Origin: Escherichia coli
GTDB taxonomy: Bacteria; Pseudomonadota; Gammaproteobacteria; Enterobacterales; Enterobacteriaceae
Assembly: GCF_013315695.1 (NCBI RefSeq)
Contig: NZ_CP054353.1
Length of the DNA: 64,000 nucleotides
Strand: one strand, 5' to 3'
In this document: positions 1 through 3,000 of the stretch, piece after piece
Position numbering within the stretch: the first letter of the stretch is position 1
Layout of the letters: every line of letters begins with the position of its first letter
Made by a program: the position numbers

Positions 1-3000
1 TACGGGGACATCCAGCTCTTTGCCGAGCGCCACCAGTTCCGCTTCATCTATCGCTTTGGTGAATCCCTGAATGCTGTAGTTACTGGTATGTACTTTCATC
101 AACAGCGCGGTATTTTCATTCACCGCCTGACGATAATCATTAGCGTGCGTGCGGTTGGTGGTCCCTACTTCGTGTAGTGTGCAGCCTGCCTGACGCATAA
201 CATCAGGAATACGAAACGCGCCGCCAATCTCCACCAGTTCGCCGCGAGAAACCACCACCTCTTTCCCGCTGGCAGTGGCCGCCAACATCAATAACACCGC
301 CGCCGCATTGTTATTAACGATACAGGCATCTTCCGCCCCCGTAATACGGCACAGCAGCTGCGCCAGCGCACGATCGCGATGTCCGCGTCCGGCGTCGTCC
401 AGATCGTACTCGAGGGTCACTGGCGAACGCATAGCCTGCGCAACGGCTTCCACCGCGGCTTCTGCCTGTAAAGCTCGCCCAAGATTGGTATGCAGCACGG
501 TTCCCGTCAGGTTGATCACCGGACGCAGCGCGCTCTGCGCCTCCTTCGTCAGTCGGGCATCGACTTCTTGCGCCCAGTTTTCACACCATGCGGGCAGCGT
601 CTGGCTATCACGAATCACTTCTCGCGCTTCGTCAAGCATCTGACGCAGCAATTCCACCACGCGGGTGTGACCATAAGTATCACGCAAAGAAAGGAAGGAG
701 CTATCGCGCAATAAGCGATCAATAGCCGGAAGTTGACTATAGAGGGAACGCGTTTCGGTTGTCATAGGAAACCTGGCTGATCAAGGCCCTCTCACACGGA
801 GAAGGGCGTTTAACATAACCACGGATTGTAACGTGAGATGGGTCAGGAGGACATATCGCGCATCAAGCCTTTGGCGGTTCGGTGCGGGCGAAACTTTCGC
901 GGCTAAAGAGGTTTTCGACCAGTTTGACTAAGTGTGGGCGGTCGACACACCAGCCTGGCGCAACGCGGCGGAAATTGAGATATCCGACGGCACAGGCAAT
1001 GGCGATAGTCGCCAGATTGACCGTATCGGTTTTGAGCGTGCCATCGACCAGATATCCTTCCAGCACATCCAGACTGCGGTTGATTTTCTCCCGCTGGCGT
1101 AACAATTCATCTTCAGACTGCTGCGCCGCCGGACGCGCCTGTTCACGCACCGATACCAGCCCGGCATCCATAATGCCATCCGCCAGCGCCTCAATTTTGC
1201 GCACCCGCAACGACTCCAGCGGATCACGCGGCAACATCGCCGGAGCGACATTCATTAATTCAATATATTCAGCGATGATCGGCGAATCAAACCAACATTC
1301 GCCCTCTTCGGTCACCAGCACCGGCACTTTCCCTAACGGGTTAAATTGCGCCACGCCGTTGTCCGCGTTATAGGGCAGTTCATTAATAAATTCGAAAGTT
1401 ATGCCCTTTTCTAACAACAGAATAGAAAGTTTGCGTACAAACGGGCTGGTGTAGCTACCGACGAGTTTCATGCCGAGTCCTTTGTGCGAGGAAAAATATC
1501 AGTATGGCTCAGGCTCGCGCAAAACACAGGTGATACAAGTCTCAATGATCCAAATAAAGATAATGCATCCAACTGGTCATTCTCAGCAGCACCTTCCGCA
1601 TCACCGAAACATGGCTGAAATGGTCGGAGTAAACTGCCACCTGGGCGTAGATGCCGTCGGGTAAAGCATCGATATCATCGTTGGGGTCCAGTTCAATGGT
1701 TCCCAGCACACCGTCCGTGCCGGGCACGACCGTTAATGATTGCAATACCCCTTGCGCCTGATACGAACCGCCTGGCACGACAGGTAAAATACTAGTCAGT
1801 TTGCCGTGGAACACCTGCCCAGGTAGCGCGTTAAACACCACTTCCGCATCATCGCCGGGTTTCAGACGTAACAGCGAGTTCTGCCGAAATTGGGCGACAA
1901 TTTGCCGTTTTTGCTCGGGGATGAAAACCATCACCGGACGTAGCGGCAAGGCAGCTGCGTATGTACCTGGGCGGATCAGTACCTGAGTAACGTAGCCATT
2001 GCTTGGTGCGCGAATGACAGTCTGCTCAAGGTTATATTTTGCTTCAGTAAGTTGCGCTCTTAAGCTCACAATCTGCGATTGCTCGCCGTTAACCATACTG
2101 TCGAGCTGGCTCTGGATCTGCGCCTGCTCCGCCACCGAGCCTTTCACCAGCGCGTCCTGCGCGAGGAAGTTTTGCCGCGCATCGTCGATGTCACGTTCCG
2201 AGAACGGATTCACCGCCGCCTGGCTGCCTTTCAGGTAACGTTGATAATTTTTAAACAGACGGTCGCGCTCCGCTGAAACCTGGGTGGTGTTGGCCTGCGC
2301 TTCAGTGAGCTGCGCGCGCAGCGTCTTTATATTATGCGTCGCCGTCATCAGGTCAGCCTGAAGTCTGTCAACTCGCGCCTGGTAACGAACCGGGTCGAGC
2401 TTAAAAAGCACCTCGCCCTTTTGAATAAGCTGATTATTTTTGTCGGTGACTTCAGTAACAATTCCCGTCACCTGTGGCGTGATGGGGATCGCTATCACTG
2501 CCTTTTGCGCGGTAAAAGTGTAAGGGTGGTTGTAGTTCATCAACAAAATCAAACCACTCACCAGAAACACGCCTCCCAGCGCCGCCGTCGCCAGCGTCCA
2601 CTGATTTACCGGAATGCGGAAGATTTTAAAGACCGCCCACGCCAGCGCCACGTAAGTTAAAACAATCAATAGATCCATATTTAGATCTCCGGGAACGTGG
2701 AATAGTCAGTCTTTTTCTCGGCGGCGAGTTGATGCTCCAGCCGGGAAATTCGGTCAGAAAGTGCGGCGATTTCCGGGTCTGGCACGTCGCCTTGCGGCGC
2801 AACATGTGACTGCATGCCCCAGCCGCGCTCCGGTTGATAGAGCGTCGCCCAGATCCACAGGAACGGCCAGATAACATGCAGAGTAAACAGGCTCACCCAG
2901 CCCGCCGTATGAATAGCGTCGGCATGGGGATGGTTGCGCTTTTTGGCAATCAGATAAGGGATGTCATGTATCGCGATGATTCCATAAAAAATCACCAGAA

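Follow-up and report, generated by a model that had tools for sequence, protein, structure and literature searches.

The rhsA element of Escherichia coli K-12 reportedly measures 8,249 bp, and a strain free of Rhs was said, in work ascribed to Feulner et al. in 1990 (J Bacteriol 172:446), to carry an unrelated 32-bp sequence in its place. The presence or absence of elements at rhs sites is likewise said to have been a subject of earlier work in the Hill laboratory. In more general terms, integration hotspots that lie between conserved core genes are an established concept of chromosome organization (e.g. Oliveira, Touchon and Rocha 2017). Jackson et al. (2009, BMC Genomics 10:584; PMC2935791) list the interval between yibF and yibH as rhs locus 10; they describe the locus as present in many strains but not in a group of pathogenic ones, and inferred that it originated after this group had diverged.

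The window considered here, the whole stretch of 64,000 nucleotides of E. coli DNA that was analysed (assembly GCF_013315695.1, contig NZ_CP054353.1), has the same flanking genes as locus 10 of Jackson et al. and represents a genome in the absent state. Whereas 20 strains were scored in that study, the present comparison extends to 5426 genomes, 28% of them empty at the site, and adds polarity by means of about 50 outgroup species. The Rhs-free (Rhs0) allele of Feulner et al. 1990 occupies the same site with, reportedly, the same numbers, 8249 bp versus 32 bp, and nothing substantive distinguishes it from the allele described here; what is added is that the 32 bp are an ancestral spacer, conserved in other Escherichia and in Citrobacter. 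As in integration hotspots, one core-gene interval holds unrelated cargo depending on the lineage (Rhs; VgrG with a LysM-domain protein; a PTS-sulfatase island). Unlike such hotspots, however, no integrase gene was seen in the islands examined (from the annotation in K-12, from ORFs and Pfam in the others), no tRNA gene is present in the 64-kb window, and the junctions lie only a few nucleotides apart within a spacer of 70 bp.

The gene order in the window is selA, yibF, yibH and yibI, followed by mtlA on the opposite strand. The yibF start codon (ATG, 1471-1469) and the yibH stop codon (TGA, 1544-1542), located from the sequence and the ORF list, are separated by exactly 70 bp with no gene in between, in line with the distance of about 70 bp given in the sequence-only reading that preceded this analysis; as a matter of gene order, this adjacency does not raise the question of chance. 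The names and coordinates of yibF and yibH are the same in the RefSeq annotation of an identical genome, E. coli MSB1_4I (rectal swab, Australia), and both proteins are 100% identical to those of K-12, with which they share WP accessions. The features of the site are as follows.

1..765, minus strand: 5' part of selA, its first 255 codons; left flank, common with K-12 (tblastn and annotation).
863..1471, minus strand: yibF, a glutathione S-transferase homologue of 202 aa, protein the same as in K-12 (ORF list, annotation).
1472..1541, no strand: yibH-yibF intergenic spacer of 70 bp, the unoccupied RhsA site (sequence and ORF list).
1472..1508, minus strand: the 37 bp adjoining yibF, kept in K-12-type occupied genomes, with the yibF Shine-Dalgarno sequence and the CCATACT box.
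1509..1540, minus strand: 32-bp segment, reading TCAGGCTCGCGCAAAACACAGGTGATACAAGT on the plus strand, found only in empty-site genomes.
1521..1533, minus strand: TCACCTGTGTTTT, relic of the right arm of the yibH terminator with its T-run (spacer comparison).
1506..1514, minus strand: GCCTGAGCC, 5' arm of an inverted repeat of 9 nt; the outermost 6 nt of this arm belong to the 32-bp segment and are replaced in K-12.
1472..1480, minus strand: GGACTCGGC, 3' arm of the same repeat, directly next to the ATG and overlapping the Shine-Dalgarno sequence of yibF.
1542..2678, minus strand: yibH, an HlyD-family protein of 378 aa, protein the same as in K-12; right flank of the site.
2681..3043, minus strand: yibI (DUF3302), upstream partner of yibH (ORF list, annotation).

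In K-12 MG1655, the distance between yibF and yibH is 8287 bp, and the annotated interval contains rhsA (4134 bp), yibA and yibG, two rhs-core fragments, one before and one after yibG, and an Imm57 immunity pseudogene with a frameshift; the RhsA element does lie between these two genes in K-12, as the sequence-only reading had stated. The alignment with K-12 that had been proposed as a check was run with BLAST: window positions 1-1508 match positions 4244-5751 of the K-12 locus and window positions 1541-3300 match positions 14001-15760, and K-12 does not possess the 70-bp junction. Since homology ends at 1508 and restarts at 1541, 8249 bp of K-12 (5752-14000) correspond to 32 bp of the window (1509-1540). 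This 32-bp segment has no counterpart within the K-12 yibF-yibH interval, and homology to rhs is absent throughout the 64-kb window, as judged by tblastn with RhsA and blastn with the whole K-12 element; the genome does lack the Rhs element at this site, as had been proposed from its sequence. The empty RhsA site is real, was correctly interpreted and is already known.

The element present in K-12 is composite, with a core of 61.7% GC and a remainder of 38.3%. Its ends display no target-site duplication, the longest direct word that they share being 5 nt, which is below the shuffle mean and was equalled or exceeded in 457 of 500 shuffles; nor do they display terminal inverted repeats above chance, the longest inverted word, of 7 nt, being reached in 182 of 500 shuffles. 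The annotation of the K-12 element lists neither an integrase nor a transposase gene. Taken with the lack of tRNA genes in the window, this absence of target duplication, terminal repeats and recombinase gene fits illegitimate recombination rather than transposition or site-specific integration.

The distribution of both states was determined in 5426 complete E. coli genomes. With the whole 70-bp spacer as query, a full match was obtained in 1522 genomes (28%), while only bases 1-37 matched in 3755 others (about 69%), which is the K-12-type boundary; the locus is thus variable between strains, as the sequence-only reading had stated. A longer query, window positions 700-2800, was matched contiguously in 1523 of the 5426 genomes, the others breaking at query position 842, that is, at window position 1541. 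On the left side, the break falls at window position 1508 (query position 259) in all but two of the 41 partial-match genomes listed, which include K-12 derivatives, O157:H7, O55:H7, O111 and SE11; the remaining two break earlier. Such uniform boundaries among occupied genomes indicate one historical event. A 39-mer spanning the 32-bp segment was found in 1085 genomes, UTI89 and Nissle 1917 among them, in each case as a single copy next to yibH, and the other empty-site genomes differ from this 39-mer by SNPs. The site is also empty in CFT073 and in four close relatives of the window strain, MSB1_4I, AF14 and two others.

The polarity of the change was addressed by a YibH search with one genome per species and 10 kb of flank kept, in which 80 of 262 loci were retrieved. 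In these 80 loci, about 50 outgroup species have the yibF start 60-115 bp past the yibH stop codon; among them are E. whittamii, Escherichia sp. E1V33 and members of Citrobacter, Kluyvera, Enterobacter, Lelliottia, Leclercia, Raoultella, Klebsiella, Trabulsiella and Pseudescherichia. In the spacer alignment, E. whittamii and Escherichia sp. E1V33 have the 32-bp segment in almost the same form, and the sequence of Citrobacter can clearly be aligned with it (TCACCTG ... CCTGAGCCATACTGA). Because deletion of an Rhs element could not recreate 32 bp homologous to those of outgroups, ancestry lies with the empty allele, and the occupied one arose by insertion together with the loss of 32 bp. To judge from these spacer comparisons, the window genome has not lost the element: its empty allele is the ancestral state.

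We therefore consider, with a probability of about 0.9, that positions 1472-1541 are the ancestral, never-interrupted yibH-yibF spacer, and that the K-12-type state results from a single insertion of the RhsA element accompanied by loss of 32 bp. From a mechanistic point of view, one event of illegitimate recombination would have placed an 8249-bp composite Rhs element, made of a GC-rich rhsA core, an AT-rich tip and downstream modules, within the spacer, with removal of the 32 bp. This event, whose singleness we infer, would have occurred in the lineage leading to K-12 and to most E. coli of the A, B1 and E phylogroup type, and the window strain would carry the allele that never received the insertion.

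The ancestry of an allele does not prove the ancestry of a lineage, and the clone could have regained the empty allele through homologous recombination in the flanks. According to this explanation, which we consider unlikely, the lineage once possessed RhsA and then underwent allelic replacement across yibF-yibH with DNA from an empty-site donor. The flanks do look mildly mosaic: at the yibF end, a stretch of 259 bp shows 99.6% identity to occupied-site genomes versus 98.6-99.0% to many empty-site genomes (98.6% for the Nissle type), and this slightly closer match to occupied genomes hints at mosaicism. Moreover, the K-12 junction is found outside E. coli, in Escherichia sp. MOD1-EC7003 (L003), which shows that alleles of this locus are transferred between lineages or maintained across them. 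Nothing requires such a replacement, however; the four close relatives are all empty at the site, and the same ancestral allele would be left in either case.

The occupied allele of MOD1-EC7003, a non-coli Escherichia (L003:11135-13426), has a yibH-side junction identical to that of K-12, TGAG followed by GGGGAGGGGGGAG. From this junction, 335 bp match K-12 at 94.6%, beyond which the two diverge, and the contig ends before yibF. A K-12-type junction in a species other than E. coli implies that the insertion is of greater age than expected for a simple post-B2 event, or has been spread more by recombination.

Precise excision of RhsA from an occupied chromosome is a far less plausible origin of the empty site. 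Rhs cores are known substrates of RecA-dependent rearrangement (PMC2935791, background section), but excision could not rebuild a 32-bp segment homologous to outgroup spacers, which is present only in empty sites and as a single copy; the ends of the element offer no direct repeats for a precise loss, their longest shared word being that of 5 nt, and no recombinase gene is present. An assembly artefact, in which a collapsed rhs repeat falsely joins yibF to yibH, is scarcely credible: multi-copy Rhs cores do break short-read assemblies, and contigs L003 and L052 end near the site, but the same 70-bp junction recurs in 1522 independent complete genomes (CFT073, UTI89 and Nissle 1917 among them) and in outgroup species.

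With regard to function, the 70-bp spacer is ordinary intergenic DNA. The comparison of spacers revealed an intact yibH terminator hairpin (GGCAGG...CCTGCC-TTTTTT) in Enterobacter, Leclercia, Raoultella and some Citrobacter. Its left arm has been lost in Escherichia and in several Citrobacter, in which the right arm and the T-run remain; in the window this relic reads TCACCTG-TGTTTT in the sense of transcription, at 1533-1521. No intact terminator and no consensus promoter were found in a scan of positions 1300-1750, and the spacer has no match in Rfam. Owing to the decay of the terminator to a relic, transcription of yibH may continue into yibF here, and read-through from yibI-yibH into yibF is probable across the spacer. 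That yibH and yibF are co-transcribed may be envisaged solely from the lack of a predicted terminator or promoter between the two genes. A pairing at the RNA level of CCTGTG..GCGAG, part of the 32-bp segment, with the region of the yibF Shine-Dalgarno sequence had been considered; it was dropped once a wider set of spacers identified TCACCTG-TTTT as the right arm of the decayed yibH terminator.

The part of the spacer adjoining yibF contains a CCATACT box (1507-1501), which is invariant across the spacers compared. Just before the yibF ATG is the Shine-Dalgarno sequence AAGGA, which overlaps the start of the 3' arm of an inverted repeat formed by GCCTGAGCC (1514-1506) and GGACTCGGC (1480-1472); this repeat has a loop of 25 nt, brackets CCATACT and extends to the ATG. 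Its arms match perfectly in Enterobacter and Lelliottia (GCCTGATCC/GGATCAGGC); variants such as GTCTGATCC/GGATCAGAC and GCCTGCGCC/GGAGCAGGC also occur, and in Kluyvera and several Citrobacter the repeat is weak or missing. It could form a leader hairpin that would occlude the Shine-Dalgarno sequence, a putative cis-regulatory RNA. Pairing of the arms is in register in 71% of cells versus 14-44% when the partners are slid, a comparison in which the structure was read off the same sequences. By eye, the changes in the repeat seemed compensatory. The formal count is near that of shuffled data, with a covariation score of 0.116 versus a shuffled mean of 0.108, 98 of 500 shuffles reaching 0.116 and two of the nine pairs changing on both sides; the repeat is thus kept as a side observation. 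In K-12, the 6 outermost nt of the 5' arm have given way to inserted sequence, and the predicted stability of the arm duplex falls from -10.3 to -4.3 kcal/mol. As the insertion in E. coli removes the outer part of a repeat that overlaps the ribosome-binding site of yibF, it may have altered the expression of that gene.

Other Enterobacteriaceae have different DNA in the same spacer. Citrobacter youngae ATCC 29220 (L020:2104-10593) has an Rhs element in this spacer, oriented like RhsA. The encoded Rhs protein, of 1373 aa, has the Pfam domains RHS_repeat, DUF6531 and RHS, and it is accompanied by small downstream ORFs and a core fragment. The rhs DNA is about 70% identical to the K-12 core, and the junctions lie within about 0-5 nt of those of E. 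coli. Sixteen of the last 26 nt inside the element are identical between C. youngae and E. coli, and the BLAST match runs 25 nt past the K-12 boundary; since the C. youngae 5' arm keeps CTGGGCC, its boundary lies about 5 nt further out. The two Rhs insertions may thus have a common origin or may have occurred independently. The site is empty in another C. youngae genome (L019). An island with a PTS EIICB, a sulfatase and an aldose epimerase occupies the spacer in Citrobacter sp. MGH106 (L009:11138-18322), where an ORF resembling a radical-SAM maturase was also read from the sequence, and in Klebsiella spallanzanii (L055:4196-12030), where a TonB-dependent receptor is also encoded. In Pseudocitrobacter faecalis (L071:11138-17098), the spacer holds an island with VgrG and a LysM-domain protein. 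These islands replace the same stretch of about 30 bp, with junctions within a few nucleotides of the point that follows TGAG on the yibH side and of the point that precedes CTGAGCCATACT on the yibF side.

It is tempting to regard the short piece of DNA that runs from the yibH stop codon to the CCATACT box as a preferred entry point for foreign DNA across Enterobacteriaceae, but we hold this idea to be doubtful. Recurrent occupancy could stem from one very old junction, with exchange of its cargo and transfer from genus to genus through recombination in the flanking yibH and yibF; or insertions may be drawn to some feature of the sequence, for instance the terminator hairpin. The recurrent junctions may also simply reflect the fact that only about 30 bp of the spacer are free of constraint.

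A second, small insertion point is found directly after CCATACT, with inserts in L010, L019, L009, L033 and L048. In two Citrobacter (L010:11135-11238 and L019:11135-11238), the insert is a 28-bp palindrome that forms a strong hairpin, while Citrobacter sp. MGH106 has about 45 bp at this point (L009, ~18230-18290). Longer inserts were observed in Raoultella ornithinolytica (about 220 bp; L048:11138-11445) and in Enterobacter sp. JUb54 (about 290 bp; L033:11138-11518). These inserts may be miniature mobile elements.

Several other differences were noted elsewhere in the window. Strain AF14 is 100% identical to the window over positions 700-2800, while the repeats of an adhesin gene differ between the two and a prophage beside yicC in AF14 is absent from the window. 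An island at 8190-15047, absent from K-12, comprises the remnant of a lipoprotein gene and a gene (10025-15025) for a YadA-like, UpaG-type trimeric autotransporter of 1666 aa, the internal repeats of which differ in copy number from those of AF14. A copy of IS1A at 8817-9584, downstream of yibL, truncates the N-terminus of this lipoprotein gene, of the SadB/YajI type (DUF3251), which precedes the YadA-like adhesin gene and is intact in AF14. Between kbl and rfaD, about 60 bp in the window (30428-30490) stand in place of about 1.28 kb with yibB in K-12. The variable part of the waa (LPS core) cluster, at 33428-39848, cannot be aligned with K-12, and the waa genes annotated in AF14 appear to be those of the R1 core type. 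A JUMPstart RNA element at 42763-42801, upstream of the waaQ operon, is the sole Rfam match in the window.

The presence or absence of RhsA between strains is an ordinary fact of strain typing, known in principle since 1990, and it matters little in itself. The additions made here are modest: the empty allele is the ancestral one, its 32-bp "filler" being a conserved spacer, and its frequency is now given from 5426 genomes. The window strain thereby belongs with the approximately 28% of sequenced E. coli that do not have RhsA, a polymorphic toxin element, at the yibF/yibH locus. A further modest addition is the hint that this tiny spacer may repeatedly accept islands in several genera.
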